Shown piece by piece: positions 11,529 to 36,554 of a stretch of DNA of 64,000 nucleotides. Numbering within the stretch: the first letter of the stretch is position 1; every line of letters starts with the position of its first letter. Made by a program: the position numbers and the translations under genes. The notes beneath the pieces are model-generated. The model searched no databases. It saw only the letters and a list, made by a program, of their open reading frames with translations, and was not told where the DNA came from. This stretch comes from an uncultured Chryseobacterium sp. (GTDB lineage: Bacteria; Bacteroidota; Bacteroidia; Palsa-965), in the NCBI GenBank assembly GCA_966211705.1, contig CBIHOC010000010.1, positions 8,339 to 72,338 on the forward strand, read 5' to 3'.

Positions 11529-13355
11529 ATGGCCGTCCTACCCAGGAATATTCTCAAAACGTTTTTCCAGAAAAACGATATACCGACCGAATCGCAATTT
11601 GGTTCGTTGATCGATTCGGCGCTTAGCCTGACTGAAGATAGAAAACTTCTCGGGCTGAAAAAATACGATCCTTCTGTTACGTATGCTGTCGGCGACTCGG
11701 CCGTGAAAGACGGGCTTATTTACGAAGCCATCGCGGTGACCACAGGACCATTCGACAGCACAAAATGGCAGAAGCTCACGTTCGGCCCTGTCAACTACGT
11801 CGGTACATGGGACGCGACGGCAAACACCCCCACGCTGGTCAGCTCAACCGGCAACAAAGGCGATTATTATGTCGTGAGTACCGCCGGCACCACCAACCTT
11901 GACGGGATCAATGACTGGCAGGTGCGCGACTGGGTCGTGTTCAACGGATCGGTCTGGCAAAAGGTCGATAACTCGGAAGGCCAGGTACCGGCTTCGCTCG
12001 TTACGTACGACAATTCGGTAAGCGGCATGCTGGCGGTTGACGTACAGGATGCGATCGATGAGCTCGACGTGCGTCTCGATACCGTGGAAACGGACATCGG
12101 CACGCTGCAGTCCGGGAAGGAGCCCGCGAACGTGAATATCCAGGGGCACATTGCTACAGTCGGTAACCCGCACGGAACAACGAAGACCGATCTCGGCCTC
12201 GGCAATGTCGACAACACCTCCGATGCCGCAAAGCCTGTGAGCACAGCACAGCAGGCCGCGCTCGATCTCAAGACCGATCTTACTTCATTCAATGCGCACA
12301 CCGGCGATACCGCCAACCCGCACGCGGTTACAAAAGCGCAGGTCGGACTCGGCAACGCCGACAACACATCGGATGCGAACAAGCCGGTGAGCACTGCGCA
12401 GCAGGCTGCGCTCGACCTGAAGACAGACCTCACTGCGTTCAACGTGCATACCGGCGATACGGCCAACCCGCACGCCGTCACCAAAGCGCAGGTCGGGCTT
12501 GTAAACGCCGACAACACATCGGATGCCGATAAACCGGTGAGCACCGCGCAGCAGTCGGCGCTCAACCTGAAAACTGATCTTACCACTTTCAACGCGCATA
12601 CCGGCAATACTTCCAACCCGCACGCCGTCACCAAAGCACAGGTCGGGCTGGGCAACGCCGACAATACTTCGGACGCCGACAAACCGGTGAGCACCGCGCA
12701 GCAGTCGGCGCTCGACCTGAAAACAGATCTGACCTCGTTCACAGCGCACACGGGAAACACATCGAACCCGCACGCGGTCACGAAGGCGCAGGTCGGTCTC
12801 GGCAATGCGGACAACACATCCGATGCGAACAAGCCCGTGAGCACTGCGCAGCAGGCTGCGCTCGACCTGAAAACGGACCTCACGGCATTCACCGCGCACA
12901 CAGGGAATACGTCAAACCCTCACGCTGTTACCAAAACGCAGGTCGGCCTCGGCAACGTGACCGACGATCAGCAGCAGTCGCATAAATTTTATTTTTTCGA
13001 TTCTCCTTCCGAAGCGACGTTGTTCGTCAATACCACCACCGGGTTTATCCCCACGATCACGATGGGCTTTACGCCTGCGGTGGCCGGCGACTATCTCGTG
13101 GAGTGGTATTACGAGATCGGCTCCGATTCCGGGAATGGTAATGTTGAGGGCCAGGTAACGCTCGACAGCACAGAGATCGGCCTTCACTCCGAAAAAATCG
13201 ACATCGCGGACACGTTGATCTCCGTGTCCGGTTTTAAAAAAGAAACCCTGACAGCTGCCGCGCATACGCTTGACGTAAAGTTCAGGAAGATCTCAGGCGC
13301 AGCAGGCGTAGAGATCTGGCTCAAGCGGCCGCGTGTCAAAATCACTAAAGTATAA
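11529..13355 (+). CDS. eCIS tail fiber protein (Afp13-like) with 6-7 tandem 40-aa phage-tail-fibre repeats.
   Basis: Repeats of NTSDAxKPVSTAQQxALDLKTDLTxFxAHTGxTxNPHAVTKAQVGLGNAD, which resemble the Pfam Phage_fiber_2 repeat. First gene of the structural operon. Confidence 0.7.
   Translation: MAVLPRNILKTFFQKNDIPTESQFGSLIDSALSLTEDRKLLGLKKYDPSVTYAVGDSAVKDGLIYEAIAVTTGPFDSTKWQKLTFGPVNYVGTWDATANTPTLVSSTGNKGDYYVVSTAGTTNLDGINDWQVRDWVVFNGSVWQKVDNSEGQVPASLVTYDNSVSGMLAVDVQDAIDELDVRLDTVETDIGTLQSGKEPANVNIQGHIATVGNPHGTTKTDLGLGNVDNTSDAAKPVSTAQQAALDLKTDLTSFNAHTGDTANPHAVTKAQVGLGNADNTSDANKPVSTAQQAALDLKTDLTAFNVHTGDTANPHAVTKAQVGLVNADNTSDADKPVSTAQQSALNLKTDLTTFNAHTGNTSNPHAVTKAQVGLGNADNTSDADKPVSTAQQSALDLKTDLTSFTAHTGNTSNPHAVTKAQVGLGNADNTSDANKPVSTAQQAALDLKTDLTAFTAHTGNTSNPHAVTKTQVGLGNVTDDQQQSHKFYFFDSPSEATLFVNTTTGFIPTITMGFTPAVAGDYLVEWYYEIGSDSGNGNVEGQVTLDSTEIGLHSEKIDIADTLISVSGFKKETLTAAAHTLDVKFRKISGAAGVEIWLKRPRVKITKV
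12190..12960 (+). repeat. About 120-bp tandem repeats, about 6.4 copies, inside the tail-fiber CDS.
   Basis: Recurrent ...gcgcaggtcgg(a/t)ctcggcaa(c/t)gc(c/g)gacaacac(a/t)tc(g/c)ga(t/c)gc... units encoding the 40-aa fibre repeat. Confidence 0.7.
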
Positions 13356-13358
13356 GGT

Positions 13359-14073
13359 CATGAAACTCGGTCAATATAACAACTGGAACCCAGCCAACAA
13401 TTCGTTCACGGGCACGCCCAAGGACCCGCATATCGTTGCCGATCCGCTGCCTGCCGATTACACGGATATTTCCTCCATCGCGAACTGGGCATTGTACGGC
13501 CCGACCATCATCGGCTCTGTTGCCGGCTTCAAAGACTGGAAATGCCTCCAGCGCGAGATCCGCACGCTCGCCGATGCTGTCGTAAATAACGATTACGATA
13601 CGAACTGGAACAACCTGTCTGTCGCTGAAAAAGTAATCGTTTGCAGTTACCTGCTCAGCCGCGTGCCGCCTGCAAAGTTTGCAGAAACCATCCCGGACGC
13701 CAATCAGCGCATACAGATCTCCATTGATTTCGATCTCAATAATCGCCGTGCGCGCGGCAACTGGCAGACCGGCAGCGGCAGGATCCAGGTGATGCGGGTT
13801 TACCTCTTCGGCAAGATCGGCAAAACGAACGGGTTGACGGTATTGAGCGACGTTGTTCGTGATGGCTTGCTGGAATTGTATGAAGGAGGTATTGAAGGAA
13901 CCGCAGAAGACGGCATACCCGGTCTGAACGATTTTCTCCTCAGCCGGACCGGTACGCCCTATGAAACCACCGGCCTGTCGAGCAGGAACTATGATGTCAT
14001 TGACGGAAGCCCCGACACGTTGGGTGACGTCGCGAACGCATTGGTGGGCATCGCAAGCAACGGAACGTATTAA
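13359..14073 (+). CDS. Hypothetical eCIS-associated protein, 238 aa. Possibly a fiber-associated or assembly protein.
   Basis: ORF directly after the fiber stop. No motif recognised. Confidence 0.45.
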
Positions 14074-14103
14074 GCAGGATTGATTTTTTAAGAGAAGCAA
14101 GTT

Positions 14104-14703
14104 ATGATCGATAAGGCGCTTGACTTTTTAACGACGGAGATCGAAGATTATCTCACCCTGCAGTTCGGCCCCGCGAGCGGAAGCTGGACAGTGCTTTCGA
14201 ACGTGGCGACCGAAACCGGCAACTGGGCCATCCCCAATGACACCGTAGGCGTTTCGCTCATTAATATCGAGGAAGAACGCGTGCTGAAAGAACAGCAGAG
14301 CGCATTCCGGGATGAGTCGGGAAACATCCAGCATTACAATCCCGAGCTCAAGCTGAACCTCTACGTGTTGATCACCGCGCGCTTCGTGAGCAGCGACGGC
14401 ACCGGCGGAGGCCTGCAATACAAGGAAGGACTGAACCGCCTGTCGCACGTGATCTCCTTGTTCCAGGGAAAGAATGTTTTTACGGTGGATAACTCTCCAG
14501 GTCTTGACAAAAACATCAAGAGGCTGGTGATCGAGCTCTACTCCTACAGCTTCGAGCAGCAATATAATTTCTGGACCGTGATCGGCGCAAAATACCTGCC
14601 GTCGGTGCTGTACAGGGTGAGGCTGGTCACTTTCCAGGAGAAAAAAGCGCTCGACCAGCAGGTGCCGATCGTAACCGTTGAATCTGAAATCGTCGGAGGA
14701 TAA
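14104..14703 (+). CDS. Putative eCIS tail terminator/cap (Afp16/Pvc16-like, DUF4255-type), 199 aa.
   Basis: Size and position immediately upstream of the sheath/tube block. Assignment rests on position and size rather than a recognised motif. Confidence 0.4.
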   Translation: MIDKALDFLTTEIEDYLTLQFGPASGSWTVLSNVATETGNWAIPNDTVGVSLINIEEERVLKEQQSAFRDESGNIQHYNPELKLNLYVLITARFVSSDGTGGGLQYKEGLNRLSHVISLFQGKNVFTVDNSPGLDKNIKRLVIELYSYSFEQQYNFWTVIGAKYLPSVLYRVRLVTFQEKKALDQQVPIVTVESEIVGG

Positions 14704-14706
14704 GCA

Positions 14707-15801
14707 ATGGGAGTTGTAGCCTATAAAAAGTTTTTCAACGTCGACGTGAAGCATGACTTTAACAAAAGCGGCTTTACGAAAGACATTACGATCACGCCGA
14801 CGATGGAGACGGAGCTGAAGATGCGGAATTCAAAGATGATGCTCCGGCCCACACCCTCCGGAGTGCGGATGTTCTATCGTGCAGTGGGAAGCGGGATCGC
14901 CGACACCGATTCATTTGTGCCGATCGACAATACCGTTTTCACGTTCGCACTTCAGTTGAGCAACAAAGCAGAATTCCTCAATGTAACGGACCTCAATGAA
15001 ACTCTGGGAAAAGAATATCAGCAGGGAAACATTGTTCGCTTCTGGAATGACCCGGCTACCACGCTCGGCCTGGAGTACGAGATCATCGACTTGCTCCGCC
15101 CGGCGGCCTTTGTTTTCAATTTCACATTGGCAAATACTGCAGTGGGAAACGTGCAGGTTGAAGTACTGGATGCCGGCGGCGGCCCTGTGATCCCTATCAG
15201 CGATCCCCTCACAGCTGTGAATGGCGTATACAGCTACAAGATCGACCTTTCCGAAGAGCCCAAAGGCAAATACCAGCTCGTGGTAACCGATGACGGCGAC
15301 AGCAATAATGATAAAACCGTATTGGCATATATCGACGGCGACCTTTCCGATAAGGACATATTCGGCATCCTGGAGATCGATTATCCGTCCACCGTCACGC
15401 TTGCTGATTTTGTCGCGCTCGGGAATTTCAGGATGGAGCTCAAGCGGCGCCTGTCGAAATGGAAGTATTTCATCATCAATAAGACGGAAAGAATTACTCC
15501 TTTCGACGACACTACTGCATTTACGATAGAACAACTGACCCCGTATGAAAACCTGCCGGTGTATACCGGTTCTCCATACCTGTTTGGGCCTGCAGTGGTA
15601 GAGGAACAGCCCATAAACGGCATGGACGCTGTTTCAATCGTATCCGTGGCTGCTATTCCTTTTTTTGAAGAATCTATCGCAAGATTAAAACTGAGCGTCA
15701 ATGCCTCTACCCTTATCACGAACCTCCCGAACCCAACGCGCTATACGGTAAGCTCCGATCCAACGGATTATTCGATTACGCACATCTACGTTTACGTCTG
15801 A
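14707..15801 (+). CDS. Hypothetical eCIS structural protein, 364 aa.
   Basis: ORF packed tightly within the structural operon, with a 4-bp gap to the previous gene. Confidence 0.5.
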   Translation: MGVVAYKKFFNVDVKHDFNKSGFTKDITITPTMETELKMRNSKMMLRPTPSGVRMFYRAVGSGIADTDSFVPIDNTVFTFALQLSNKAEFLNVTDLNETLGKEYQQGNIVRFWNDPATTLGLEYEIIDLLRPAAFVFNFTLANTAVGNVQVEVLDAGGGPVIPISDPLTAVNGVYSYKIDLSEEPKGKYQLVVTDDGDSNNDKTVLAYIDGDLSDKDIFGILEIDYPSTVTLADFVALGNFRMELKRRLSKWKYFIINKTERITPFDDTTAFTIEQLTPYENLPVYTGSPYLFGPAVVEEQPINGMDAVSIVSVAAIPFFEESIARLKLSVNASTLITNLPNPTRYTVSSDPTDYSITHIYVYV

Positions 15802-15842
15802 ACTCAAAATAAAAATCAACAAACCATAAAAACAACTAACAA

Positions 15843-17591
15843 ATGGCAGTCAATCCACTTTCACCCGGTGTGTATATCGACGAGATCCCGGTACTCCCGG
15901 CTTCCGTCGCACCGGTAGCAACAGCGATACCGGCGTTTATCGGGTATACGGAAACTGGCCCTCCGCTGGTCGCAACACGAATTACGTCGATGCTTGAATA
16001 TGAGCAGATTTTTGGCTTTGCATTCGTTACAGATTATGAAGTAGACATCAGCGATGCAGATGTAACCATCGATAATACGGCGACTGTACTTTCAGAATAC
16101 ACGCTCTATTATAACTTGCGGATGTATTTTGCCAATGGTGGAGGTCCTTGCTACATTGTTTCAGTAGGAAATTACGCAACGAGCTCTCCTTTTGTTGATG
16201 CAAATGATTTGATCACCGGCATAGCAGCTACAGAAAAGGTCGATGAAATCACACTGCTGGTTACGCCTGAAGCGGTTTCGGTCGATGTAACCCAACCGCA
16301 GCGAAATCTGATCAACTCAACAATGCTTGACCTGTGCAACAAGCTCAAGGACCGGTTTTCGATCATCGACGTAATTACCGACACCAGCCAGACTATTTTC
16401 GCCGACGCTGCAGATTTCAGAAATTCTGAAACAGGGCTTAACAACCTGAAATATGGAGCAGCGTACTATCCTTCGCTCAGCACACTCCTGTCACGTCATT
16501 ATCTGGACTCAGCTGTTGTGATTGACGATGGCAGAAGTTCTCCTGTTTTTGTTTCTCCGAACGATAGTCTTTCTGACATCTTAAATGGTGTAGCGGCCGC
16601 AGGCACTATTACTATTACCGGTTCAGTTGCTGTAAATGATGAAGTTACGATCAATGGCGTAACACTTATCGGAAAAGATCCAGCAAACCCCTTGGATCCT
16701 GAAGAGTTTACGCTTCTTCCAACAAGTGGTCCTCCCTTTAACAGCGTTCAAACTGCAGAAAGTTTAAGGGACATTATCAATAATCATCCCGTTCTTAAGC
16801 TCATTGTTCAGGCTAGTGTTCTGACGCCTTCGGTCGTAACGGTAACAGCAAAAGTAGCTGGCATAAGCGGCAATTCATTCACATTTACGGCACCATTAGG
16901 CAACGCCGGCCTGACAATATCTACAACCAATACGGGATTCCTCGATGGAGGTATTGATCCTGACATGACATTATACAATAGTATTACAACTCTTCTCCAG
17001 GCAAATACGCTCACTCTTTACCCGTCATCAACAATGGCCGGTATTTACGCCAGCGTCGACCGCGACCGCGGTGTATGGAAAGCACCCGCAAACGTCAGCA
17101 TCAACGGTGTTGTTGCTCCCACACTTGCCATCAGCTCTGCCGACCAGGAAAACCTGAACATCGATGCGGGCTCGGGCAAATCCATCAACGCGATCCGCGC
17201 TTTCGCCGGAAAAGGGATTCTCGTATGGGGCGCCCGTACGCTTGCCGGCAATGACAATGAATGGCGCTACGTACCTGTACGCCGACTTTTCATCTTCGTC
17301 GAAGAGTCTATCCAGGAAGCCAGCGAATTCGTCGTATTCGAACCGAACGACAAGAACACCTGGACGCGGGTCAAATCACTCATCACCAATTTCCTCACCA
17401 ACCTTTGGAGAGACGGCGCTCTTGCCGGCGCAACGCCTGACGAAGCATTCTTTGTGAGAGTCGGTCTCGGGGAAACCATGACGGCGCAGGATATCCTCGA
17501 AGGCAAAATGATCATCCAGGTCGGTCTCGCTGCAGTCCGCCCCGCAGAATTCATCATCCTCCAATTCTCGCATAAGCTCCAGGAATCATAA
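15843..17591 (+). CDS. Contractile sheath protein, paralog 1 (Afp2-4/Pvc2-4-like).
   Basis: Conserved sheath C-terminal domain (KYGAAYYPSL...GILVWGARTLAGNDNEWRYVPVRRLFIFVEESI...AVRPAEFIILQF). N-terminus is near-identical to that of paralog 2. Confidence 0.85.
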   Translation: MAVNPLSPGVYIDEIPVLPASVAPVATAIPAFIGYTETGPPLVATRITSMLEYEQIFGFAFVTDYEVDISDADVTIDNTATVLSEYTLYYNLRMYFANGGGPCYIVSVGNYATSSPFVDANDLITGIAATEKVDEITLLVTPEAVSVDVTQPQRNLINSTMLDLCNKLKDRFSIIDVITDTSQTIFADAADFRNSETGLNNLKYGAAYYPSLSTLLSRHYLDSAVVIDDGRSSPVFVSPNDSLSDILNGVAAAGTITITGSVAVNDEVTINGVTLIGKDPANPLDPEEFTLLPTSGPPFNSVQTAESLRDIINNHPVLKLIVQASVLTPSVVTVTAKVAGISGNSFTFTAPLGNAGLTISTTNTGFLDGGIDPDMTLYNSITTLLQANTLTLYPSSTMAGIYASVDRDRGVWKAPANVSINGVVAPTLAISSADQENLNIDAGSGKSINAIRAFAGKGILVWGARTLAGNDNEWRYVPVRRLFIFVEESIQEASEFVVFEPNDKNTWTRVKSLITNFLTNLWRDGALAGATPDEAFFVRVGLGETMTAQDILEGKMIIQVGLAAVRPAEFIILQFSHKLQES

Positions 17592-19078: not shown

Positions 19079-19510
19079 ATGGCAGCAAATTATCCTCAGA
19101 CCACTTTCCATTTTACTGTAGAATGGAACGGGGCACGTGTCGGTTTTACGGAAGTTACCGGCCTCAACATCGAAAACCAGGTCATCGAATACCGTGAGGG
19201 CGATGCAAAGAGCTACCAGGTCACAAAGATGCCGGGCATTCCCAAGTTCCCGAACATTACGCTGAAGCGCGGCGTGCTCAGCGGCGACAACGACTTCAAC
19301 ACCTGGATCACGACGGTGAAGATGAACAAGATCGAGCGCCGTACGCTCAAGATCAGCCTGCTCGACGAAGAGCACAACCCGGTGATGACCTGGCAGATCT
19401 TCGATTGCTGGCCGACCAAGATCACCTGGCCCGACATGAAATCGACCGGCAATGAAGTTGCCATCGAGACGCTGGAGCTTGTCAATGAAGGAATCCAGCT
19501 GCTGGTCTAA
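19079..19510 (+). CDS. Tail tube protein (Afp1/Pvc1-like, T4 gp19 fold).
   Basis: 143 aa. Has the tube signature YPxTTFHFTVEW...GFTEVTGL...EYREGD. Confidence 0.8.
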   Translation: MAANYPQTTFHFTVEWNGARVGFTEVTGLNIENQVIEYREGDAKSYQVTKMPGIPKFPNITLKRGVLSGDNDFNTWITTVKMNKIERRTLKISLLDEEHNPVMTWQIFDCWPTKITWPDMKSTGNEVAIETLELVNEGIQLLV

Positions 19511-28536: not shown

Positions 28537-28731
28537 ATGAAAGACCTTAAACTCCAACTCTCCGTCAGCGAAGTCAATCTTGTGCTGAAAGCGCTCGGCA
28601 ACCTGCCTTATTACCAGGTATGCACCCTGATCGATAAGATCCAGGGACAGGGCAATCTCCAGATCACGCCACCGAACGGCAACGGTCACGACGTCGAGCA
28701 CAAAGCAGAAAATACGATTCATCATTCTTAA
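28537..28731 (+). CDS. Small hypothetical protein, 64 aa.
   Basis: Fills the 233-bp gap between two large same-strand genes. Weak evidence. Confidence 0.3.
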   Translation: MKDLKLQLSVSEVNLVLKALGNLPYYQVCTLIDKIQGQGNLQITPPNGNGHDVEHKAENTIHHS

Positions 28732-28745
28732 TTCCCGACCGTATT

Positions 28746-31700
28746 ATGGCCGAATCACTAACCATATCGCGACAGCCCCAGGCCATTCCGAGCATGAACT
28801 ATCCGTTCCTGCGCGAAAAGGGGATCAACCGCCTGCAGGAACTGTCCGGGAATGTCTGGAACGATTTCAACATTCACGACCCCGGAGTCACGCTTCTCGA
28901 AGCGCTGGCCTATGCCATTACCGATCTCGGTTACCGCTCCAGCTACAAGATCCAGGACATTCTCGCCAACGATCCGAGCAGCAGCGCCGACATCCGGAAT
29001 TTTTTCAGCGCCTACCAGATCCTCACCAACCGCGCGCTGACGCCTGACGATTACCGGAAGCTGCTCATCGACGTACAGGTCACCGATCCCGTGACAGGGG
29101 CGAAAGCCGGCGTAAAAAACGCGTGGCTGATGAAAGCGCTTGAATCGGAGATCCCGTTCTACGTGCATGGAACAAAAAACACGCTCGACTACGTTCCCGA
29201 TCCGCTCGTTCCACCCGTGCAGGATCCCGTGAGGCTGAAAGGCCTGTACAACGTGCTGCTGGAATTCGACGAGAACGACCAGTACGGCGACATGAACGAG
29301 AATTATCTCGTCGGTGAGATGAAGATCGGCGCGCCGTCGGCATTCCCGGACTGCGCAGTTCCGCCCGATGCAGGGATGCTGTATAAAGACGTGGTGATCA
29401 CCGTGGGCTTCCCGCACTGGGACGACGCGCGCGTGGTGAACTGGGACGATCCGAACGACATCCGTCAATACATCGGCGAGCAGGTGAAGCTGGAATTTAT
29501 CGGGCTTCCCGACAGCTACATCATCGACTACGTTGTAAATCCCAATGACGGCAGCGTGATGCTGGCCGGCGGTATCGACACGGACTACGACGGCACTGTA
29601 GATGCGCCTTTCAACCCGGTCACGAGCCTTGCCTGCCTGCAGGACCAGGTCAACGATTTTATTTTCAACGCCACGACCGGCCTGATCGCGGAATACCAGG
29701 AAAAGGTCAAGCTCATTTTCCGCCTGCTTTGCGAAGTTCGCCGCACGCTGATGGCGAACCGCAACCTCTGTGAAGATTTCCTGAAGCTGAACGCGGTGAA
29801 AGTGGAAGAGATCGCGATGTGCGGCGATATCGAGCTGGAAAACGACGCCGACGTCGAAACCGTCATGGCGGATATCTATCACCGCATCGGCGAGTTCCTC
29901 TCCCCTACCGTATTCTTCCACACGATCGAAGAGATGATGGCGAAAGGAAGATCGGTGGAGGAAATTTTCGAAGGCCCGCGCCTGAAACACGGGTTCATCG
30001 ACAACGACGAGCTGAAGAAAGCCGGCTTCCGGGAATCCATCCACGTTTCCGATTTCTACCAGATCATTATGGACGTGCCGGGTGTGATCGCGGTGAAAAA
30101 TCTGCAGATCGCCAATTTCCCGGAGCAGACCACCGAGAATATCCCGACCGTCAGCGTAAAATGGTGCCTCGGACTGGCATTCGACAAAAATTTTGTTCCC
30201 CGTCTCAGCGTCGGGCGGTCCAGCATTACGTTCTTCAAAGGACTGCTGCCTTTCCAGGCGAAAGCAGACGAAGTGCTCGAACGCCTGAAAGCGTTGCGCG
30301 CGCTGGATCCGTTGCAGCGCCTGGAAAATCCCGTGCTCGATCTTCCTGTTCCGCAGGGAGAGTTCAGGGACATCGACGATTACGTCAGCGTGCAGGAAGA
30401 ATTCCCGCTCGTGTACGGCATCGGTTCCGAAGGCTTGCCCAACAGCGCGACCGATCTGCGGAAGGCACAGGCGCACCAGCTCAAAGGATTTCTCATGTTC
30501 TTCGACCAGCTGCTGGGCGATTATCTCTCGCAGCTCTCGCATATCAAAGACCTTTTCTCGCTGAACGACGCGCTGGACAACGACGGGAATTTCGTGATCG
30601 ACCGCACCTACTTCACGCGGAGCCTGCTCAACATCGTTCCGAACGCGGCGGACCTTTACATCAATTCGCCCGCGGTCCATGACGCCAACCTGCTGGCGAT
30701 TACCGAAAGCCCCGAACTGTTCGAAAACCGGAGAAACCGTTTCCTCGATCACATGCTCGCGCGTTTTGCGGAATCCTTCACCGATTACGCGCTGCTGGCA
30801 TACAAGCTCGACGGCCCCAAAGCCCCGGAAGAGCTGATCGAAGACAAGCTCGATTTCCTCAACGCTTACCCGGAGCTGAGCTACCACCGCGCGGGCGCTT
30901 TCGACTACAAAGACACCTGCGAGATCTGGAGCATCGACAACGTATCGGGCGTGGAGAAAAGAGTTTCGCTGCTCACGGGCATCGACCCGGTGAAACCGTC
31001 GGACCTCGCGCTTCCTGTTTACGTCGACATTATCGACACTGCCGGCGGCGCCCCGTTTTCCTATAAGCTGAAAGACTTGTCGCTCACGGTGATCATGGAT
31101 TCGGTCAACACGTACGCGACGATCGACGAAGTGTTCCTGGCGGTTGAGCAGTTGCTGCTTACCGGCTTGTTCACCGAAAATTATTTCATCTACGACGTCA
31201 GTAATTTAAACACGCCGATCGATCCGGCCAATCCGCCCGCGGGCCCGTTCATCGTCAAACTGCGCTGCCTCGAAACGGCTATCGCGATCACCACGCCCCC
31301 GGCGAATTTCCTGACGGTGGGCGCAGCGCAGACCGCCATCGCCGATGCGGCAGCCGCGTGCATGAACGAATACCAGCGTGTTCCGCCGACCAACCGGAAA
31401 GACCTCGATTGCGCGCTCGAAGACAACGTCGACATCGACGTGGTCATTATCGAGCCGACAGACGAGTGCCCGAGAAAAGCGGAGATCACGTACACGATCC
31501 TCAACGATCTCGACCAGCCGCTTTTCACTTACGTGGCGACGGTCGGTTCGAAAACCGGCGAATCTGCCGCGGATTTTGCGATCCGTGTTGACGAAGAGAA
31601 ACACGATATTTTCCTCGAGTTCCTCCTGAGGGCTGCGAACCGCAACGTCTACCGTTTCGAGGATGACGGCGGCAATTATATTTTCGCCGCCACGGACACC

Positions 31701-33296
31701 TGCCAGCAAACGATCGCGAAAAGCGAGGAAGTCGATTTCAACTTCCATCTCGCAGCAAGGATCGGCACAGGCCCTGTCGACGTGTATGATGCGAACGGCA
31801 GCTTCGCGGGGAATTTCCCGGTGGCGTCGTCCGCAAGCAACGAAGACAAGATCGAGATCACGTTAACAGGCGCGACACTGACTCCTGCCATTGCCGGAGG
31901 AAAGATCACGAAAGACTTCACCGCGTCGATCCTTGCCGGCGACTTCGATCCTGTCCGCAAGCGTTTCATCGTCAACGAAGATCTTCGCGGATGTGTAAAA
32001 ACCGGCGACGTGCTCCCGGTGATCATCGACCTGGCGCTGCCTCCTGTCCTGCTCACCGTAACGGGCACACGGATCATCGACTTTACGCCTTCAGCGTACA
32101 GGACAGAAATTACGGTCAAAGAAAACTTCACCGTAACGCTTACGTCGACGGCAACGTTCACGTACACGGTGAGCCTGCCGATCATTGCCCTCGACAATCC
32201 GCCGCTCTCGCCCCCTCCTCCATCTGACCTTGTGCTGAAAGGCGGCGTGGAAGAGATCGCGCTGGACGAATTCCTCGCGTACATCACGCTGAAGTTCCTG
32301 GGCCGCGAAGGTTTCCACCTCGTGGAGCACATCCTGCTCCGGCCGACGACAAAGCTGAAGCGATGGGAGCCGGCCACGAACACGACGCTGACCGAAGGCC
32401 TCACGCAGCAGGGCGACATCTACTTCCTGAAAACCGTCAACATCGTCGCGGTGGATATTCCGAACCGCATTTTCACGGTCACAGGGGATGTTACGACGGA
32501 GCTCCTGCCTTTCCAGAATATCGTGCTGAACGGCTCGAACCTCGGGCTCAACGACAGGTCGTATGTCGTGCAATCGGTAACGCCGAACGGGACGGACACG
32601 GACATAAAAGTCACCACAGCCATCACCGACAACACGATGCCCTTCGGTGATATTACGTTCACGAAAAAATCGGCGGTCGGCGCCGTTGTCGCGGCGACCA
32701 TCACGATCAGCATTCCCGGCGACGACCTGTCCGGCGAGCTGGATCCCGGCGACGTGATCATCCTCAAAGGTTCGCAGAACGGGGCCAACGATACGCGCTA
32801 TACCGTGCTTTCCGTAACGTACGACCCGATCACCGACATCACCGACATCACGATCGACGAGGTGGAGGTCGAATACAAAGACGACTTCCTGCCGGTCAAC
32901 GTGGATGACAACTGTGAAGATTGCCGTTACCATGATCCGTATTCGTTCATCGTCACGGTTATTCTCCCGCACTGGCGCGGGCGCTTTTCCAACTTCGCGT
33001 TCCGCAAATTCTTCGAGCGTACGCTGCGTCTCGAAACACCGGCCCACGTGGTGGTGAACATTTGCTGGATCAATTGCGAGCAGATGAAAGCGTTCGAATC
33101 GCGTTACAAGCTCTGGCTGTACCTGCGTGCCAAAAAGGAAAAAGATCCCATCGCTATTTCAAACGCGCTCAACGACGTTATCGATATCCTCGGCAAGCTT
33201 CGCACGGTTTACAACAAAGGCACGCTGCACGACTGCGAATTCGAAGATGTGCGCAACTCGATCATTCTCAACCAGACTCAATTAGGAACCAGCTAG
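28746..33296 (+). CDS. Large eCIS baseplate-associated protein (Afp12-like candidate), 1516 aa.
   Basis: Long ORF with protein-like composition in the structural operon. The antisense 709-aa ORF is Arg-rich and judged spurious. Confidence 0.6.
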   Translation: MAESLTISRQPQAIPSMNYPFLREKGINRLQELSGNVWNDFNIHDPGVTLLEALAYAITDLGYRSSYKIQDILANDPSSSADIRNFFSAYQILTNRALTPDDYRKLLIDVQVTDPVTGAKAGVKNAWLMKALESEIPFYVHGTKNTLDYVPDPLVPPVQDPVRLKGLYNVLLEFDENDQYGDMNENYLVGEMKIGAPSAFPDCAVPPDAGMLYKDVVITVGFPHWDDARVVNWDDPNDIRQYIGEQVKLEFIGLPDSYIIDYVVNPNDGSVMLAGGIDTDYDGTVDAPFNPVTSLACLQDQVNDFIFNATTGLIAEYQEKVKLIFRLLCEVRRTLMANRNLCEDFLKLNAVKVEEIAMCGDIELENDADVETVMADIYHRIGEFLSPTVFFHTIEEMMAKGRSVEEIFEGPRLKHGFIDNDELKKAGFRESIHVSDFYQIIMDVPGVIAVKNLQIANFPEQTTENIPTVSVKWCLGLAFDKNFVPRLSVGRSSITFFKGLLPFQAKADEVLERLKALRALDPLQRLENPVLDLPVPQGEFRDIDDYVSVQEEFPLVYGIGSEGLPNSATDLRKAQAHQLKGFLMFFDQLLGDYLSQLSHIKDLFSLNDALDNDGNFVIDRTYFTRSLLNIVPNAADLYINSPAVHDANLLAITESPELFENRRNRFLDHMLARFAESFTDYALLAYKLDGPKAPEELIEDKLDFLNAYPELSYHRAGAFDYKDTCEIWSIDNVSGVEKRVSLLTGIDPVKPSDLALPVYVDIIDTAGGAPFSYKLKDLSLTVIMDSVNTYATIDEVFLAVEQLLLTGLFTENYFIYDVSNLNTPIDPANPPAGPFIVKLRCLETAIAITTPPANFLTVGAAQTAIADAAAACMNEYQRVPPTNRKDLDCALEDNVDIDVVIIEPTDECPRKAEITYTILNDLDQPLFTYVATVGSKTGESAADFAIRVDEEKHDIFLEFLLRAANRNVYRFEDDGGNYIFAATDTCQQTIAKSEEVDFNFHLAARIGTGPVDVYDANGSFAGNFPVASSASNEDKIEITLTGATLTPAIAGGKITKDFTASILAGDFDPVRKRFIVNEDLRGCVKTGDVLPVIIDLALPPVLLTVTGTRIIDFTPSAYRTEITVKENFTVTLTSTATFTYTVSLPIIALDNPPLSPPPPSDLVLKGGVEEIALDEFLAYITLKFLGREGFHLVEHILLRPTTKLKRWEPATNTTLTEGLTQQGDIYFLKTVNIVAVDIPNRIFTVTGDVTTELLPFQNIVLNGSNLGLNDRSYVVQSVTPNGTDTDIKVTTAITDNTMPFGDITFTKKSAVGAVVAATITISIPGDDLSGELDPGDVIILKGSQNGANDTRYTVLSVTYDPITDITDITIDEVEVEYKDDFLPVNVDDNCEDCRYHDPYSFIVTVILPHWRGRFSNFAFRKFFERTLRLETPAHVVVNICWINCEQMKAFESRYKLWLYLRAKKEKDPIAISNALNDVIDILGKLRTVYNKGTLHDCEFEDVRNSIILNQTQLGTS

Positions 33297-33320
33297 AACA
33301 TTATAAAAAAGAACCATATC

Positions 33321-36300
33321 ATGAGTACTTCTCACCCGATATTCCAGGACAACCAGGTTCTGACCAGCCAGCAACTTAACTTTTTGCGGGATTATCTTGA
33401 CGAGCAGGTTCGTCTTACCCGCGCCAAGCTGATCGGCATCGGCGTAACCAACGGGCTCCACGTGAGCTCCAACTACGACGCCGTAGCCGATACGCTCAGC
33501 GAAATATATATTTCCTGCGGCGCCGCCGTATCGTCGGAAGGTTACCTGATGACGCTCGGGCAATGCACGATCAACCGGTACAGGGATTATACGCTTCCGC
33601 TGGGCCAGGTGTACGAACCGTTCACCGGGAACGACGCGACCCTCGACATTACGCTGTACGAACTGCTGACCCCGACCGCCGCCACGTTGCCGTCGGATAC
33701 GGTTACATTGCTCAGCGACAACCCGGGGAGCTTCTACAACGACATGGTCGTACTGCTCTTTGTTGAGTTCTTCGACATGGAAAAGGATTCCTGCCTCGGC
33801 GGAAAATGCGAAGAGTTCGGCATCTCGCGCACGTACACGCTGCGCAAGCTGATGCTCAGCAAGGCCCACGCCAACATCGTCCTCAGCAGGGCGCCCGGGG
33901 TCCTGTTCGACCCGCTCTATCCCACGAAATACGGCCTTGACGACATCATCATGCGCCGCACGCTGTTCGACCCGGCCCTGCCGCACAGCAATAACTATAC
34001 GGACTTTTCGCTGAACTACGCGACGACGTTCAGGAGCGACATTTTCGTCGACATGATCCAGCTGCTCAAGGATACATACACGGTTTACAAACCACTGCTT
34101 GAGGAACATTACAACAGCAATAACCCGTTCAACGATCCCGACATTACTACGCTCGTAGGCACGTGGACCAACTTCCTGAACGGCTCCTCGACCGGCCCGG
34201 CTTATCTCGGCATCCAGTATTTCTACGACTTCGTCAAGGACCTGATCCTCGCGTACAATGAATTCTGCGGCGTGGCTTTCGAGCTGGCCTCGGAATGCTG
34301 CGTGAACATGACGCGTTTCCCGCGCCACGTGTTCATCGGTGAAGTGATCCCGACCGGCATCTGCGGACCGACGCCGTATCGCCAGGAATTCATTTACTCC
34401 GAGCTGCACGACAGCCAGAAGCTGCTCCTGGACGAAGCGGTCATGCTTCACAAGCGTATGGTGCTCCAGCTTCGCAGCTTCGACTTCGACCTCATCAACA
34501 ACCCGGTGGTGGCGAACCCGCTCATCCACATCACGCCCAGCTTCGAGAAGAAAGGCCGTCTCAGCGAACGCTCCGTTCCTTATTATTACGACCTCAACAA
34601 CAACTTCCCGTTCGTTTCCACCGCGCCGGTAACTACCGGGCAACTTTCGGCACACTGGCGCTATGAGCTGGCCCGCAAATGCAAAACGATCGGCGGGGTT
34701 ACGCAGATCCTTGCTTACGGCAACCAGGAGGTCAACCAGTTGGTCGACCAGGGACCGATCAAAACGCCGCTGCGCTACGACCTCGACCAGACCAATTTTT
34801 TCCGGATCGAAGGTCATCTCGGGAAGAGCTACGTGACTGTCAAACAAACCATCGAGGATAAAAAGCACCAGTTCGATCTCCCGTTCAATATCGTGGCGCT
34901 CCGCCTCCAGGGAGAAGCGTTCGACCAGATCGAAGAGCGCTGCAGCTTTGAAGACCTGCGGCTGGAGTATTCGACGACGCGGGCGAGCTTCATCTGCAGG
35001 ATTGACAATTATTGCCAGCGGATCGCGCAGCAGGCTTCGCCGGGACAATTCTGGTCGACACTCATCACGGACGCCAATGCCGTCACCGGCAGTTCGTCGG
35101 TTGCGTTCAATCCTCCCGCTTCCTTCAGCGGCGACCTGGGCGACGTGGGTATCGGCGGGGCCGGCAGCACGCAACGGCAGGCGGGCACCGGCAATCCTGC
35201 AGTGGTCATCGTCAACCGCGGTAAGCCGCTGGAGCTCCTTGCGCAGGATTTCTACGATACCGCCGACGACCTTTGCACGAAGCTCAACCTCGTGAAGGGC
35301 CTCCTGCCTTTCGATTTCAAAGCATTCAACTACGGCGCAGATATCGCGGCCATCGACGACAGCTTCATCAAATCGTGGATCGAAGCCGTCAACCTGGCGA
35401 TCGACGCGAAAGTCGCTTTTGCACGCGTGCTCGACTTTATCGCGCGCTCCCCGAAATCGCGTCCTTCGGCAGAAGTTTATTTTGCGCTTTCCCAGTACGC
35501 GGCGGAAGTGATCGATATGTATAACGAGATCATCCAGGACTGCACCTACAAGGAGTTCGAGATGCTTTATTATACCTATCGTTACCGGCTGAACTACCTG
35601 CAGCAGAACGATCCGCTGCTGTTCTCCAACTTCATCCGCAAGCACCCCGGCGTCGATCACAAAGCCGGCGTGGCGCCCGGCGGAACGTTCATCATCGTGT
35701 ACAACGGCGACAACGTTTCGATCAACATCCAGAACATCGAGCAGGCCATACTTTTCGCCGAGAACATCAACGATCTCGAATGCCAGCGCAACGTGCTGAT
35801 GGCAAAACCGATGCGTTCGAAGGAAGATAATCTCGTGCTGGCCAACATCAATTTCCAGCTCAACCAGTGTTTCGAGCTCGAGGCCAGCCTGACCTCCGAA
35901 GCCGTATTCCTCAATCCTTCGCCCACCATCCAGCAGATCCTCATCCAGGAAGATTGGGTTATCGCCGATTTCGCGCTGCCTTATCTCTGCTGCTGCGACT
36001 GCGATTGCGGCGATATCCCCGCTCCTGCCCTGGCCGACCTCGCGCTGCCCGAGCTCAACCCGGTGCTGGCGCCCGGCGTTACGGTGCCGCTGTTCGTACA
36101 GTACAACATGGGCGATTACGCATTCGCCAACCCGATCGATACTTCGATGGAAGGCTGCACGCTCAACGTGGTCCCGCTCAACATCGACGTCGAGAACCAC
36201 ATGCGTTACGATTCGACCGCCGGCGACAACTTCGTGCTGAAGTTCATCGTCAACGGCGAGCTCCGTACGCCGAAACCCTCCACCACTTCGCTCATCGATA

Positions 36301-36554
36301 CCATCTTCACCACGCAGGGCGGCAAGGCGGAGATCGTTTCGATCTCTTCGAACATCATGCGTTTCCGCTACACGCCGTACGTCGGCTTCGTCGGCGTCGA
36401 CCGCTGGCAGTTCATGTTCGAAGTCTACAGCGGTGAGACCAGGATGCTCGTCTCCACACCGGGCGAAGTTGCAGTACACGTAATGAACCAGTGTACCGTC
36501 GTTCCGCCGCTCGAATCAGGAGAGACCCTGCCGCCTGCGGAGCCGACGTTGTAA
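33321..36554 (+). CDS. Large eCIS-associated protein, 1077 aa. Last structural gene before the cargo array.
   Basis: Long ORF. The antisense 1065-aa ORF is Arg/His-rich and spurious. Contains a Cys-rich CCCDCDCGD segment. Confidence 0.6.
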   Translation: MSTSHPIFQDNQVLTSQQLNFLRDYLDEQVRLTRAKLIGIGVTNGLHVSSNYDAVADTLSEIYISCGAAVSSEGYLMTLGQCTINRYRDYTLPLGQVYEPFTGNDATLDITLYELLTPTAATLPSDTVTLLSDNPGSFYNDMVVLLFVEFFDMEKDSCLGGKCEEFGISRTYTLRKLMLSKAHANIVLSRAPGVLFDPLYPTKYGLDDIIMRRTLFDPALPHSNNYTDFSLNYATTFRSDIFVDMIQLLKDTYTVYKPLLEEHYNSNNPFNDPDITTLVGTWTNFLNGSSTGPAYLGIQYFYDFVKDLILAYNEFCGVAFELASECCVNMTRFPRHVFIGEVIPTGICGPTPYRQEFIYSELHDSQKLLLDEAVMLHKRMVLQLRSFDFDLINNPVVANPLIHITPSFEKKGRLSERSVPYYYDLNNNFPFVSTAPVTTGQLSAHWRYELARKCKTIGGVTQILAYGNQEVNQLVDQGPIKTPLRYDLDQTNFFRIEGHLGKSYVTVKQTIEDKKHQFDLPFNIVALRLQGEAFDQIEERCSFEDLRLEYSTTRASFICRIDNYCQRIAQQASPGQFWSTLITDANAVTGSSSVAFNPPASFSGDLGDVGIGGAGSTQRQAGTGNPAVVIVNRGKPLELLAQDFYDTADDLCTKLNLVKGLLPFDFKAFNYGADIAAIDDSFIKSWIEAVNLAIDAKVAFARVLDFIARSPKSRPSAEVYFALSQYAAEVIDMYNEIIQDCTYKEFEMLYYTYRYRLNYLQQNDPLLFSNFIRKHPGVDHKAGVAPGGTFIIVYNGDNVSINIQNIEQAILFAENINDLECQRNVLMAKPMRSKEDNLVLANINFQLNQCFELEASLTSEAVFLNPSPTIQQILIQEDWVIADFALPYLCCCDCDCGDIPAPALADLALPELNPVLAPGVTVPLFVQYNMGDYAFANPIDTSMEGCTLNVVPLNIDVENHMRYDSTAGDNFVLKFIVNGELRTPKPSTTSLIDTIFTTQGGKAEIVSISSNIMRFRYTPYVGFVGVDRWQFMFEVYSGETRMLVSTPGEVAVHVMNQCTVVPPLESGETLPPAEPTL

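Follow-up and report, generated by a model that had tools for sequence, protein, structure and literature searches.

Organization and affiliation of the locus

The window, meaning the whole 64,000-nucleotide stretch of DNA analyzed here, appears to encode a contractile injection system of the Bacteroidota AlgoCIS/MAC/Anabaena-tCIS branch of eCIS, an extracellular, fibre-targeted machine that would inject DUF4157 cargo. We give this reading a probability of roughly 0.8. Judging from its genes, the locus covers at least positions 2303-51799, roughly 50 kb, with 11529-36554 as its structural core. It is about twice as long as the interval flagged by the original prediction, which had called 11529-36554 complete; the tape measure gene, two AAA+ ATPase genes and four DUF4157 cargo genes fall outside, at 2303-10995 and 36625-51799. 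Besides the tape measure, it encodes two AAA+ ATPases predicted to act as loaders, three fibres and four toxin cargo proteins, and all reading frames are intact. The AlgoCIS/tCIS type itself has already been described. The locus is known here from its genes, whose identities, order and conservation in relatives are observed directly; beyond these, we infer that the particle acts after release, where its fibres dock, how cargo is loaded and which genes give immunity. Particle architecture is modeled by homology to the solved AlgoCIS and tCIS structures.

The core contains 18 co-directional, tightly packed plus-strand ORFs; 21 genes had been claimed, and the intergenic gaps are too short for more. 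Junctions are overlapping or very close, as predicted: genes overlap by 4 nt at 20962 and at 23426, and the other junctions leave 3-65 nt. The gene classes named in the original prediction all match Pfam profiles at their positions, far beyond chance, the sheath, tube, gp25 and VgrG profiles among them.

The proposed affinity to Afp and PVC holds for the general class. The locus is a phage-tail-derived eCIS with the Afp1-16 core functions; its parts list corresponds to Afp1-12 and 14-16 of the Serratia Afp and Photorhabdus PVC systems (PDB 6RAO, 6J0N), and the general order of sheath, tube, baseplate, fibre, tape measure and ATPase is the same. The nearest solved systems, however, are AlgoCIS of Algoriphagus machipongonensis (PDB 7ADZ/7AEB/9WT0; Xu et al. 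2022, PMC8894135; PMC13314943) and the tCIS of Anabaena PCC 7120 (PDB 7B5H; Weiss et al. 2022, PMC8894136). Each large component matches 7adz/7aeb and 7b5h chains 40-130 orders of magnitude better, the sheath for example at 1e-122 vs 1e-62 to 1e-68 for Afp/PVC. Afp and PVC also lack the cap adaptor, the cage and the Cis19 fibre, have a cap about 100 aa longer, and carry cargo without DUF4157. Among solved structures, AlgoCIS is the best or nearly the best match to the sheath, Cis11, Cis12 and the Alg19-type fibre. It also shares the short cap with its adaptor, the Alg6/DUF5908 plug, the cage domain of Cis11, an AAA+ ATPase of the Alg15 kind, and DUF4157 cargo whose N-terminal domain is disordered. 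The tCIS has the same Cis11 with cage, fibre-like gene in the cis13 slot, extended Cis12 and Cis19 crown, and supplies the best solved matches for Cis12 (All3315), the 1077-aa protein (All3314) and the cap adaptor (All3326). Algoriphagus-type loci (L050-L054) have the same core gene order; identity of the core proteins to those of the Algoriphagus resistens locus is low, at 26-53%.

More than 571 relatives of Cis12 were found in genomes. Among the 80 examined, mostly from Bacteroidota, synteny is kept in the order sheath, sheath, tube, tube, plug, Cis7, VgrG, PAAR, gp25, Cis11, Cis12, Cis19, tape measure, AAA and DUF4157. It is scarcely credible that we see here the degenerate remnant of a prophage tail or of an R-type tailocin, killing via depolarisation, with the DUF4157 genes as unrelated neighbours. 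Its tail-like gene content is indeed phage-derived, but the eCIS-specific families Pvc16_N, CIS_tube, CIS_TMP, DUF5908 and eCIS_core are present together with AAA+ loader genes, phage head, lysis and integrase genes are absent, and intact frames are accompanied by synteny kept in hundreds of genomes. Among the ORFs scanned, none encodes a capsid, portal or terminase protein or a component of the T6SS membrane complex.

Cap, sheath and tube

The end of the eCIS particle would be closed by a short cap and a cap adaptor. The cap, or tail terminator (14104-14703, 199 aa, Pvc16_N 7e-29), is of the Alg16A type, which measures 197 aa vs 293-295 aa for Pvc16/Afp16. The adaptor, an Alg16B/All3326 homologue (14707-15801, 364 aa), yields no match as a single sequence. 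A profile of five homologues matches All3326 at 1.1e-5 (7b5i) and, at 1.8e-4, the chain named "cap adaptor protein" in AlgoCIS (7adz_1A).

Two sheath proteins follow. The first (15843-17591, 582 aa, Phage_sheath_1C 9e-14) matches AlgoCIS 7adz at 4e-122, Anabaena All3325 at 3e-119 and Afp3 at 9e-68 in the PDB; the second (17630-19015, 461 aa, Phage_sheath_1C 4e-13) is its paralogue, 72% identical across the C-terminal 230 aa. Next come two gp19-type tube proteins (19079-19510 and 19529-20032, Phage_T4_gp19 1e-45 and 2e-40) and a 52-aa protein of the Afp6/Alg6 type (20045-20203, DUF5908 2.4e-13), for which the AlgoCIS work (PMC8894135) provides the role of plug. The tape measure would determine how long the tube and the two-protein sheath grow.

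Spike, baseplate and enlarged Cis12

A LysM-containing tube initiator of the Afp7 type (20207-20965, CIS_tube 2e-40, LysM 3e-5) would carry the Alg6-type plug and the spike, which consists of a VgrG-like protein (20962-22710, Phage_base_V 6e-23, Phage_GPD 7e-6) and a PAAR tip (22723-22992, PAAR_motif 7e-16). The baseplate predicted to form around this spike comprises a gp25-like wedge protein or sheath initiator (22998-23429, GPW_gp25 1.3e-22), Cis11 with its spike cage, and an enlarged Cis12. Cis11 (23426-26758) is of the gp6/Baseplate_J type with a spike-cage insertion. The original Baseplate_J call is weak in Pfam (2e-4), but the PDB matches to Alg11 (3e-167) and All3317 (1.5e-164) are strong; Afp11 is more distant (7e-33). 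Its alignment includes Alg11 residues 1-76, 85-489 and 548-1038, so that most of cage domain IV (278-643) is covered.

Cis12, an Afp12 or gp6-gp7-like wedge protein (28746-33296), is 1516 aa long, compared with 933 aa in AlgoCIS. It matches All3315 at 7e-158 and Alg12 at 7e-113, and resembles Afp12/Pvc12 at its N-terminus only, over about the first 100 residues (about 20-120). Against homologues of ~1000 aa, only residues 1-746/815 and 1379-1516 are covered, which maps an expansion of ~500 aa to about residues 815-1379, in the peripheral part.

The three distal proteins of 577, 1516 and 1077 aa are bigger and more numerous than Afp11-13, as originally noted. They do not all belong to the baseplate, as had been suggested: the 1516-aa protein is a baseplate wedge protein, the 577-aa one is fibre-like and the 1077-aa one is a fibre. 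Their size and number reflect features known in the clade, namely the cage domain of Cis11, the gp7-like region of Cis12, which varies, a fibre in the Cis13 slot, as tCIS has, and the Alg19/Cis19 fibre.

Three fibre types

The particle would bind its target through three fibre types. The Cis19/Alg19-type fibre or "crown" (33321-36554, 1077 aa) matches All3314 at 5e-47 and the 1443-aa AlgoCIS fibre 9wt0_a at 1.8e-39. Its N-terminal ~550 aa, corresponding to the shoulder and neck (domain roles assigned after PMC13314943), are conserved, in contrast to a unique C-terminal half. As a trimer, it may dock on the C-terminal loop of Cis12.

P577 (26779-28512, 577 aa, PHROG tail fiber 4e-8) is encoded between cis11 and cis12, in the cis13 slot. 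It has N-terminal helices, a beta-rich shaft with the recurring motif xGIGxxxPxxxLHV, and a C-terminal helix. By phmmer it matches no solved chain, including all chains of 7B5H. Structure prediction had been proposed for all three distal proteins; for P577 it gave an AF2 model of moderate quality (pLDDT 66, pTM 0.28). The best Foldseek matches are, in the PDB, beta-helices of Bdellovibrio fibres (8.5e-5) and, in BFVD, 159 proteins that are phage fibres or S74 chaperones (best 7e-11); TM-scores to fibres are low. P577 is directly followed by p64 (28537-28731, 64 aa), a co-conserved protein located by tblastn immediately 3' of P577 homologues in 10 loci; gene calling also places it in L001, L003 and the P0003 contig. 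It may serve the fibre as chaperone or as connector. The gap between Cis11 and Cis12 is occupied by P577, with or without p64, in 12 related loci and is shorter than 250 nt in about 55.

F608 (11529-13355, 608 aa) opens the operon and matches PHROG tail fibre families at E-values of 1e-66 to 1e-20. Its 45-aa N-terminal anchor-like domain is followed by five to six copies of a 50-aa phage tail-fibre repeat, visible in the DNA as tandem repeats of 150 nt (12165-12914), and the protein ends in a distinct C-terminal domain. P577 has this N-terminal domain too: hhalign aligns the F608 N-terminus with the profile of the P577 family at a probability of 97.6% (E=3e-12). The adjacent 237-aa protein (13360-14073, listed as 13333-14073) matches nothing in Pfam, NCBIfam, PHROG or the PDB; a homologue, also of 237 aa, occupies the same position 3' of the fibre gene in the close relative L084, and a role as fibre assembly factor is possible. 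Neither the P577-p64 pair nor F608 with its partner is found in AlgoCIS.

From gene position and the example of tCIS Cis13, the two Cis13-slot fibres P577 and F608, which share the anchor domain, probably dock on the Cis11/Cis12 periphery. In the fibre catalogue of Nachmias et al. 2026 (PMC12923769), the 1077-aa protein would fall into eBAP4, whose defining trait is a match to the tCIS crown N-terminus. P577 and F608 would belong to eBAP2, in view of their helical N-terminal domain of ~45-50 aa, their occurrence in Bacteroidota 3' of a Baseplate_J gene, and family members with C1q or Peptidase_S74 domains.

Among the closest relatives, AlgoCIS is released, MACs form arrays, and T6SSiv and tCIS are membrane-anchored. 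We consider it unlikely that the present machine stays attached to the producer cell in the T6SSiv/tCIS manner, anchored via the enlarged Cis12 and the Cis13-slot protein. In tCIS, which is anchored through Cis12 and Cis13, the genes likewise run Cis11, Cis13-slot protein, extended Cis12, Cis19, and for Cis12 and the Cis19-like protein the match to the thylakoid-anchored proteins of Anabaena is slightly better than that to AlgoCIS. But tCIS Cis13 is a short protein whose TM helix (residues 122-154) is the defining anchor, whereas P577 is long and beta-rich. A hydrophobic-segment scan detects no TM helix in P577, F608 or any other structural protein of the locus. Moreover, P577 and F608 are long phage-type fibres, Bacteroidota have no thylakoids, and tCIS-like eBAP2/eBAP4 systems need not be thylakoid-anchored (PMC12923769).

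An ordered multi-tail array like MACs, in which P577, F608 and the enlarged Cis12 serve as inter-particle connectors rather than receptor binders, is very unlikely. Here Cis12 is expanded and there are extra fibres, at sites that the AlgoCIS paper (PMC8894135) names evolutionary hotspots, yet no MAC-specific component was identified in it and F608 contains typical phage receptor-binding fibre repeats. Multiple fibres occur in 23% of eCIS loci (PMC12923769) without implying arrays.

Tape measure and probable loading ATPases

The AAA+ ATPase(s) may thread cargo into the tube lumen, and sheath contraction would expel it. In AlgoCIS, DUF4157 proteins are luminal cargo, loaded by the AAA+ protein Alg15 through a disordered N-terminal domain. 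Here, two Afp15/Alg15-like ATPases are encoded, as opposed to AlgoCIS, and are 41.5% identical. AAA1 (9589-10995, minus strand, AAA 5e-28), of 468 aa when started at Met53 of the listed ORF, diverges from the structural operon; it is closest to the ATPase 3' of the tape measure in L004 and is 97% conserved at the same place in L084. AAA2 (48574-49923, plus strand, 449 aa, AAA 1.3e-26) has intact Walker A and B motifs and best matches the ATPases 3' of the tape measure in L012, L060 and L076.

The original prediction found no tape measure, which is true of the flagged interval. The 633-aa protein is encoded by the last gene of the locus (49898-51799, plus strand, CIS_TMP 1.6e-118). Related Bacteroidota loci usually read Cis11-Cis12-Cis19-TMP-AAA-cargo, and in 50+ of them the tape measure gene follows the Cis19-type fibre gene. 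Here, it lies 13 kb on, behind cargo and immunity cassettes inserted 5' of AAA2 and the tape measure gene. Both this cargo island and the placement of AAA before TMP are departures from AlgoCIS. The gene 3' of the tape measure is plsY, on the opposite strand.

Cargo genes and toxin cassettes

The four cargo proteins, vs two in AlgoCIS, are predicted to combine disordered N-terminal loading sequences with differing C-terminal toxins, one of them an EndoU nuclease. Cargo a (2303-5845, minus strand, 1180 aa, eCIS_core 1e-27) has the HExxH motif HEVVH, a long coiled-coil-like middle and a hydrophobic helix cluster at residues 851-968. Cargo b (6735-9515, minus strand, eCIS_core 2.5e-27), with its C-terminal EndoU domain (EndoU_bacteria 1.4e-22), likely starts at the ATG at 9500; it is 90% identical to cargo a in the first ~200 aa. 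A ~1-kb duplication (5296-6297 vs 8951-9920, 91.5% across 1003 nt by blastn of the window against itself) holds a pseudo-copy of the AAA1 3' end (5966-6241, minus strand), whose translation matches the AAA1 C-terminus. The 110-aa ORF directly 3' of the EndoU cargo gene (6395-6727, minus strand), without a Pfam match, is by position a candidate immunity gene.

The remaining cargo lies on the plus strand. Cargo c (36625-39261, 878 aa, eCIS_core 3.6e-28) and cargo d (42313-45096, 927 aa, eCIS_core 6.6e-28) are 95% identical in the first 288 aa. A 190-aa ORF (39251-39823) follows cargo c, and a protein with four hydrophobic segments (45151-45621) follows cargo d. These small genes 3' of the cargo genes probably confer immunity, and match no protein family.

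Polymorphic toxin loci of the Rhs, CDI and Maf type contain orphan C-terminal cassettes. The present locus resembles them in its conserved N-terminal delivery parts (90-97% between paralogues), variable C-terminal toxin domains, a small gene after each toxin, and displaced C-terminal cassettes that keep a conserved junction sequence. An orphan cassette (39869-41591) consists of repeat R1, an orphan ORF, a 138-aa ORF (40980-41396), repeat R2 and a junction fragment. The orphan ORF (40002-40976) encodes the junction and a C-terminal domain and is 64% identical to cargo c residues 578-787; by blastn, 38327-38709 matches 39976-40358 at 95%. A second block (42153-45895) holds R3, cargo d, the four-hydrophobic-segment protein, R4 and a junction fragment. 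Toxins may be exchanged through recombination with such cassettes. Unlike in Rhs, CDI and Maf loci, delivery here would use an eCIS loading sequence with DUF4157, and a 120-nt local repeat stands 5' of each cassette.

Between this block and AAA2 lie genes for a 511-aa protein with an acidic N-terminus of 13-aa repeats (46005-47540) and two predicted lipoproteins with lipobox-like N-termini (47546-48055 and 48087-48545), paralogues of 28% identity. No family matches were obtained for these proteins, PHROG included; their position suggests that they belong to the system. Side features of note are the two ATPases and, with their local repeat, the orphan toxin cassettes.

Composition and boundaries of the locus

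Sequence comparisons very strongly support the locus as real, and the original prediction needs three corrections, to its boundaries, its gene count, and its family. Plus-strand ORFs run without interruption from 11529 to 36554, and every gene class that had been named matches its Pfam profile, including the sheath, tube, gp25, and VgrG profiles, against which a failure of the core genes had been set down as speaking against the locus. The Pvc16_N cap (14104-14703, 199 aa, 7e-29) is followed by two sheaths (15843-17591 and 17630-19015), two gp19 tubes (19079-19510 and 19529-20032), and a 52-aa DUF5908 plug (20045-20203, 2.4e-13) that lies between the second tube and the CIS_tube+LysM tube initiator (Afp7, 20207-20965). 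VgrG (Afp8, 20962-22710), PAAR (22723-22992), gp25 (Afp9, 22998-23429), and Baseplate_J (Afp11, 1110 aa, 23426-26758) come next, the last with a weak Pfam match; all of these genes are on the plus strand. Six proteins of the operon, of 608, 246, 364, 577, 1516, and 1077 aa, have no Pfam family. The tight gene junctions reported earlier are borne out by the ORF listing, with 4-nt overlaps at 20962 and 23426 and gaps of 3-65 nt otherwise. The figure of 21 plus-strand genes has to be lowered, as the listing contains 18 ORFs between 11529 and 36554, the 64-aa ORF at 28537-28731 included, and the intergenic gaps are too small for further ones. No Shine-Dalgarno sequence precedes the operon ORFs, and their upstream regions are A-rich; taken with the related loci described below, these features assign the window to Bacteroidota.

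Pfam and PDB matches together place the core set used in dbeCIS/eCIStem (sheath, tube, Afp7, Afp8, Afp9, Afp11, and Afp12) in one cluster, and equivalents of Afp14, Afp15 (AAA, twice), and Afp16 are also found by Pfam. The description of the operon as complete within 11529-36554 does not hold, since a Pfam scan of the flanks puts the tape measure, two AAA+ ATPases, and four DUF4157 genes outside this interval. The CIS_TMP tape measure (Afp14, 49898-51799, +, 1.6e-118) had been reported as missing from its usual position; it is indeed displaced, by 13 kb through an inserted island, but it is present.

The usual position was taken from related loci. A genome scan with the 577-aa protein alone gave no matches, and one genome per species was scanned instead with a two-sequence alignment of the 1516-aa protein (Cis12). 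This found more than 571 relatives, and the best 80 loci were annotated with the proteins of the window; Bacteroidota account for most of the 80, Ignavibacteria and Chlorobi for some, and other groups for a few. Their canonical order is sheath-sheath-tube-tube-plug-Cis7-VgrG-PAAR-gp25-Cis11-Cis12-Cis19-TMP-AAA-DUF4157, and the usual position of the tape measure gene (TMP) in the clade is therefore directly after the Cis19-type fiber gene. An ATPase gene precedes the tape measure here, whereas it follows it in the canonical order of the relatives.

The right boundary is sharp: past the tape measure, the opposite strand carries housekeeping genes, among them plsY and prmA, together with the gene for a 1533-aa secreted protein. 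The left boundary of the locus lies beyond the window edge. An ORF at 51869-52741 (+) was rejected as spurious; it is of low complexity, rich in His, Arg, and Asp, and overlaps the real plsY (51932-52594, -, Pfam 1.5e-56). The 1533-aa protein (52595-57196, -), which adjoins plsY just outside the CIS locus, has a signal-peptide-like N-terminus and no Pfam match. Farther out, GGCGGTGGCGGTT-like units repeat in tandem every 13 nt at 61699-61862, in the N-terminal extension of a biotin carboxylase ORF (60171-61901, -). Rfam and tRNA scans returned no matches. Between 35500 and 52500, terminator-like sites occur at chance level in a consensus scan against shuffles, and 25 sigma-70-type promoter-like sites are counted against a shuffled mean of 15.5 (sd 4.1), for a consensus that is not applicable to Bacteroidota.

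Relationship to known contractile injection systems

The system had been called Afp/PVC-like, which is correct only in the broad eCIS (extracellular contractile injection system) sense. The PDB ranking, together with the presence of the hallmarks introduced by the AlgoCIS paper, namely a short cap, a cap adaptor, a plug, and a Cis11 cage (PMC8894135), points to closer kinship with AlgoCIS of Algoriphagus machipongonensis and the thylakoid-anchored CIS (tCIS) of Anabaena PCC 7120. The sheath matches AlgoCIS at 4e-122 and tCIS at 3e-119, far above Afp/PVC at 1e-62 to 1e-68; this best-hit ranking, with the feature matches, is the basis for placing the locus on the AlgoCIS-like branch, which is clade Ib in the scheme of Chen et al. 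that PMC8894135 cites. The 1110-aa Cis11 behaves in the same way (AlgoCIS 3e-167, tCIS 1.5e-164, Afp11 7e-33), and Cis12 matches All3315 of tCIS at 7e-158 and Alg12 at 7e-113, while its similarity to Afp12/Pvc12 is limited to approximately residues 20-120. Identities to the Algoriphagus resistens locus range from 26 to 53%.

The hallmarks can be followed one by one. At 199 aa the cap is as short as Alg16A (197 aa), and the long Afp16 cap is not found here. The 364-aa protein after the cap, for which a single-sequence PDB search returned no match, is recognized by a five-sequence profile as the cap adaptor (Alg16B), matching All3326 at 1.1e-5 and AlgoCIS 7adz_1A at 1.8e-4. The DUF5908 protein is of the Alg6/Afp6 plug type. 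Most of the cage domain of Alg11 (278-643) is spanned by its alignment with Cis11, which takes in Alg11 residues 85-489 and 548-1038 and leaves 489-548 unaligned.

A prophage and a canonical type VI secretion system were also considered. Pfam searches of the ORFs scanned across the window found no head, portal, terminase, or integrase family, and no TssB/C sheath, ClpV, or TssJLM membrane complex; because these families are not matched, the locus is neither of the two. We assign the system, by its sequence, to the known AlgoCIS/tCIS-type branch, elaborated with multiple fibers, multiple cargo proteins, and a dual ATPase.

The mode of action is most likely that of a released particle. This would distinguish it from systems used in arrays or anchored to the cell, as in tCIS, where Cis13 carries a C-terminal transmembrane anchor helix. 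A Kyte-Doolittle scan finds no transmembrane helix in the 577-aa protein (P577) and no hydrophobic segment in it, in the 608-aa fiber (F608), or in any structural protein, and the Cis13 anchor has no counterpart among them. The released mode is favored by the lack of such helices in the structural proteins, by the presence of three phage-type fibers, and by AlgoCIS being the nearest Bacteroidota precedent. The locus does not overturn current understanding; it adds a well-resolved case from Bacteroidota that links the two architectures. Cage, cap adaptor, and plug are common to AlgoCIS, tCIS, and this locus, the periphery follows the tCIS style of Cis11, Cis13-slot, extended Cis12, and Cis19, and long soluble fibers are found where tCIS has its membrane anchor.

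Baseplate periphery and fibers

The original prediction of an elaborated baseplate or fiber network was right in spirit, though known modules account for it: a fiber slot occupied by P577, an expansion of Cis12, and a Cis19 fiber. F608 (11529-13355) is a clear tail fiber, with PHROG E-values down to 1e-66 and five to six copies of a 50-aa repeat; it is kept in a close relative along with its 237-aa neighbor.

P577 (26779-28512) lies between cis11 and cis12. The gap between these genes is below 250 nt in about 55 loci, and in 12 loci a 1.9-2.1-kb insertion fills it, encoding a homologue of P577 and, in most cases, a protein of 56-65 aa after it. P577-bearing loci include those of Wandonia haliotis, a Crocinitomicaceae MAG, and several Bacteroidia MAGs. 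The slot is variable. One relative (L021, 2193-7044) has two fiber-like genes there, for an F608-like protein of 358 aa and one of 1210 aa, another (L011, 6934-9447) has an 837-aa version, and in a third (L034, 2642-4201) a version of 281 aa is paired with a 182-aa protein. A precedent is tCIS, where the gene order is cis11, cis13, cis12, cis19 (Weiss et al. 2022, PMC8894136) and Cis13 is a fiber-like trimer, attached by its N-terminal domain to the baseplate at a C-terminal extension of Cis11 (PMC8894136).

A word-indexed search had suggested that P577 is extremely rare (4-6 matches in 5.8 billion proteins), a view overturned by tblastn on the fetched loci and an exhaustive HMMER search. About 30 full-length representatives were found, and HMMER gives 335 representative clusters at E ≤ 1e-30 and 31,584 at 1e-3, the larger number arising because the shaft motif recurs in giant repeat proteins. 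A metagenome scan for the family returned almost entirely short shaft-motif matches on unrelated contigs, and one full-length match. P577 matches a PHROG tail-fiber family at 4e-8, and members of its family carry C1q or Peptidase_S74 domains. The AF2 model reached a pLDDT of 32 with a 4-sequence alignment and of 66 with 25 sequences, the latter usable only for local Foldseek matches. With low TM-scores, it matches Bdellovibrio fiber β-helices in the PDB and 159 phage tail-fiber-type proteins in BFVD, and it predicts two N-terminal helices. The first ~45 residues of P577 match the N-terminus of F608 (hhalign probability 97.6%).

These features recall eBAP2, a class of ~50-aa helical anchors found in Bacteroidota and Cyanobacteriota that co-occurs with the crown-type eBAP4 (PMC12923769). 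F608 and P577 are candidate members: C1q or S74 domains like those in their family are described for the class, and the N-terminal domain that they have in common, with its two predicted helices, may be an anchor of this kind. In general, eCIS fibers sit downstream of Baseplate_J genes, and multi-fiber loci make up 23% of systems (PMC12923769). The fibers of this locus have no match to Afp13/Pvc13, which are of the adenovirus-shaft type, in PDB searches.

Cis12 residues 1-746/815 and 1379-1516 are common to homologues of ~1000 aa, and the middle ~500 aa are an expansion of the peripheral gp7-like part, which the AlgoCIS authors regard as an evolutionary hotspot for fiber and superstructure attachment (PMC8894135). 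Cis12 of tCIS is also extended, by an insertion at residues 610-1100 of All3315, the likeness being in the presence of an extension. P577 is found essentially only beside a Cis12 of at least 1489 aa, but in five loci a large Cis12 occurs and P577 does not.

The 1077-aa protein (33321-36554) is assigned on sequence similarity as a Cis19/Alg19 fiber with a lineage-specific C-terminal half. Residues 3-558 align to residues 9-572 of All3314, the Cis19 crown of tCIS, at 5e-47, and the N-terminal ~550 residues match the 1443-aa AlgoCIS fiber (9WT0) at 1.8e-39. The latter is an Alg19 homotrimer, which docks through its shoulder and neck on the C-terminal loop of Alg12 (PMC13314943). By the homology of its N-terminus to the tCIS crown protein, over the first ~200 aa of the crown, the 1077-aa protein fits the definition of eBAP4. 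With two fibers that have one anchor domain in common and a third of the Alg19 type, the locus is a possible comparative template for engineering fiber docking on AlgoCIS-type particles.

Cargo islands

Four DUF4157 (eCIS_core) proteins flank the structural genes: cargo a (2303-5845, -) and cargo b (6735-9515, -) on the left, the latter with a C-terminal EndoU nuclease according to Pfam, and cargo c (36625-39261, +) and cargo d (42313-45096, +) on the right. The N-termini are 90% identical between a and b and 95% between c and d. All four contain HExxH inside DUF4157, beyond which the sequences diverge completely. As in AlgoCIS, DUF4157 cargo occurs together with an Alg15-type ATPase, and the N-terminal domains of the cargo are of low complexity. 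The AlgoCIS tube lumen is filled by DUF4157 proteins (PMC8894135); a disordered N-terminal domain is the loading signal there, and the AAA+ protein Alg15 is needed for loading (PROCIS preprint).

Comparison of the window with itself reveals several duplications. A 1-kb segment (5296-6297 vs 8951-9920, 91.5% identical) comprises the 5' part of a cargo gene and the 3' end of the left ATPase gene, and has left a dead copy of the latter, a 91-codon pseudo-fragment at 5966-6241 (-). An 835-nt duplication covers the 5' ends of the cargo c and d genes. An orphan ORF (40002-40976) opens with a copy of the internal junction of cargo c (38327-38709) and has 64% aa identity to cargo c residues 578-787. 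Junction fragments ('YDQGEMVGKAIGYLIPEIIIAVFSG') are also found at 41507-41591 and 45704-45895, the copies having 92-98% nt identity. The orphan C-terminal toxin cassette, along with three further junction copies or fragments, suggests that toxin domains may be swapped by recombination.

A ~120-nt repeat with the core ATGTTTTGGTATGAAGTTACGAACG is present at 39869-39990, 41400-41522, 42153-42270, and 45619-45705 (all +), and its 22-nt core at 6341-6362 (-) in the left arm. It is confined to the cargo islands, always just after a small ORF, a putative immunity gene, behind a toxin gene. In the right arm, the element after it is an orphan cassette, a fragment of the junction, or cargo d. The repeat was not found in the related loci that were fetched (L001-L084), and folding z-scores of -0.7 to -3.6 indicate no convincing conserved structure. 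GC content is 0.40-0.50 in the islands and 0.51-0.585 in the structural core. Polymorphic toxin loci that carry immunity genes and orphan cassettes have this layout, and we infer the immunity roles and the recombination; the locus may show how eCIS cargo repertoires diversify.

Two ATPases and loading specificity

Both ATPases match Pfam AAA. AAA1 (9589-10995, -, start moved to Met53) adjoins cargo a and b, whose N-terminal domain is ~90 aa long, and AAA2 (48574-49923, +) adjoins c and d, where it is ~183 aa. The two are 41.5% identical overall, with 65% in the ATPase core and 31% in the N-terminal domain. AAA1 groups with the ATPase of a locus from the P577-bearing subclade (L004), and AAA2 with ATPases of other subclades.

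Cognate AAA+ recognition of eCIS loading sequences is a general hypothesis of the PROCIS preprint. The idea of cognate pairs arises here because each ATPase has as its neighbor a cargo pair with a distinct length of N-terminal domain; a single eCIS chassis might then use two AAA+ loaders, each dedicated to the pair next to it. The notion of two unrelated classes of loading signal is weakened, as AKLEVxxPxDxxExEAD, a motif common in loci with a single ATPase as well, is present in both types of N-terminal domain. We put the probability of dedicated loaders at only about 20%. Should such loaders exist, the locus would provide a natural test of AAA+ specificity for particular loading sequences, and its toxin repertoire would be further shuffled via orphan cassettes flanked by the local 120-nt repeat.

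Pfam, NCBIfam, and PHROG offer nothing usable for the C-terminal domains of cargo a, c, and d, for the putative immunity genes, or for the 237-aa, 64-aa, and 511-aa proteins and two lipoproteins. In the 511-aa protein (46005-47540, +), an acidic 13-aa unit (MDEEKxMNAAGS) is repeated ~12 times at the N-terminus; the protein might be cargo without DUF4157. The next two genes, which end at 48545, encode predicted lipoproteins (169 and 152 aa) that are paralogues of each other. The left cargo island has at its outer edge, among small ORFs, a gene for a Tpt1/KptA RNA 2'-phosphotransferase (1223-1762, -, Pfam 9e-33).
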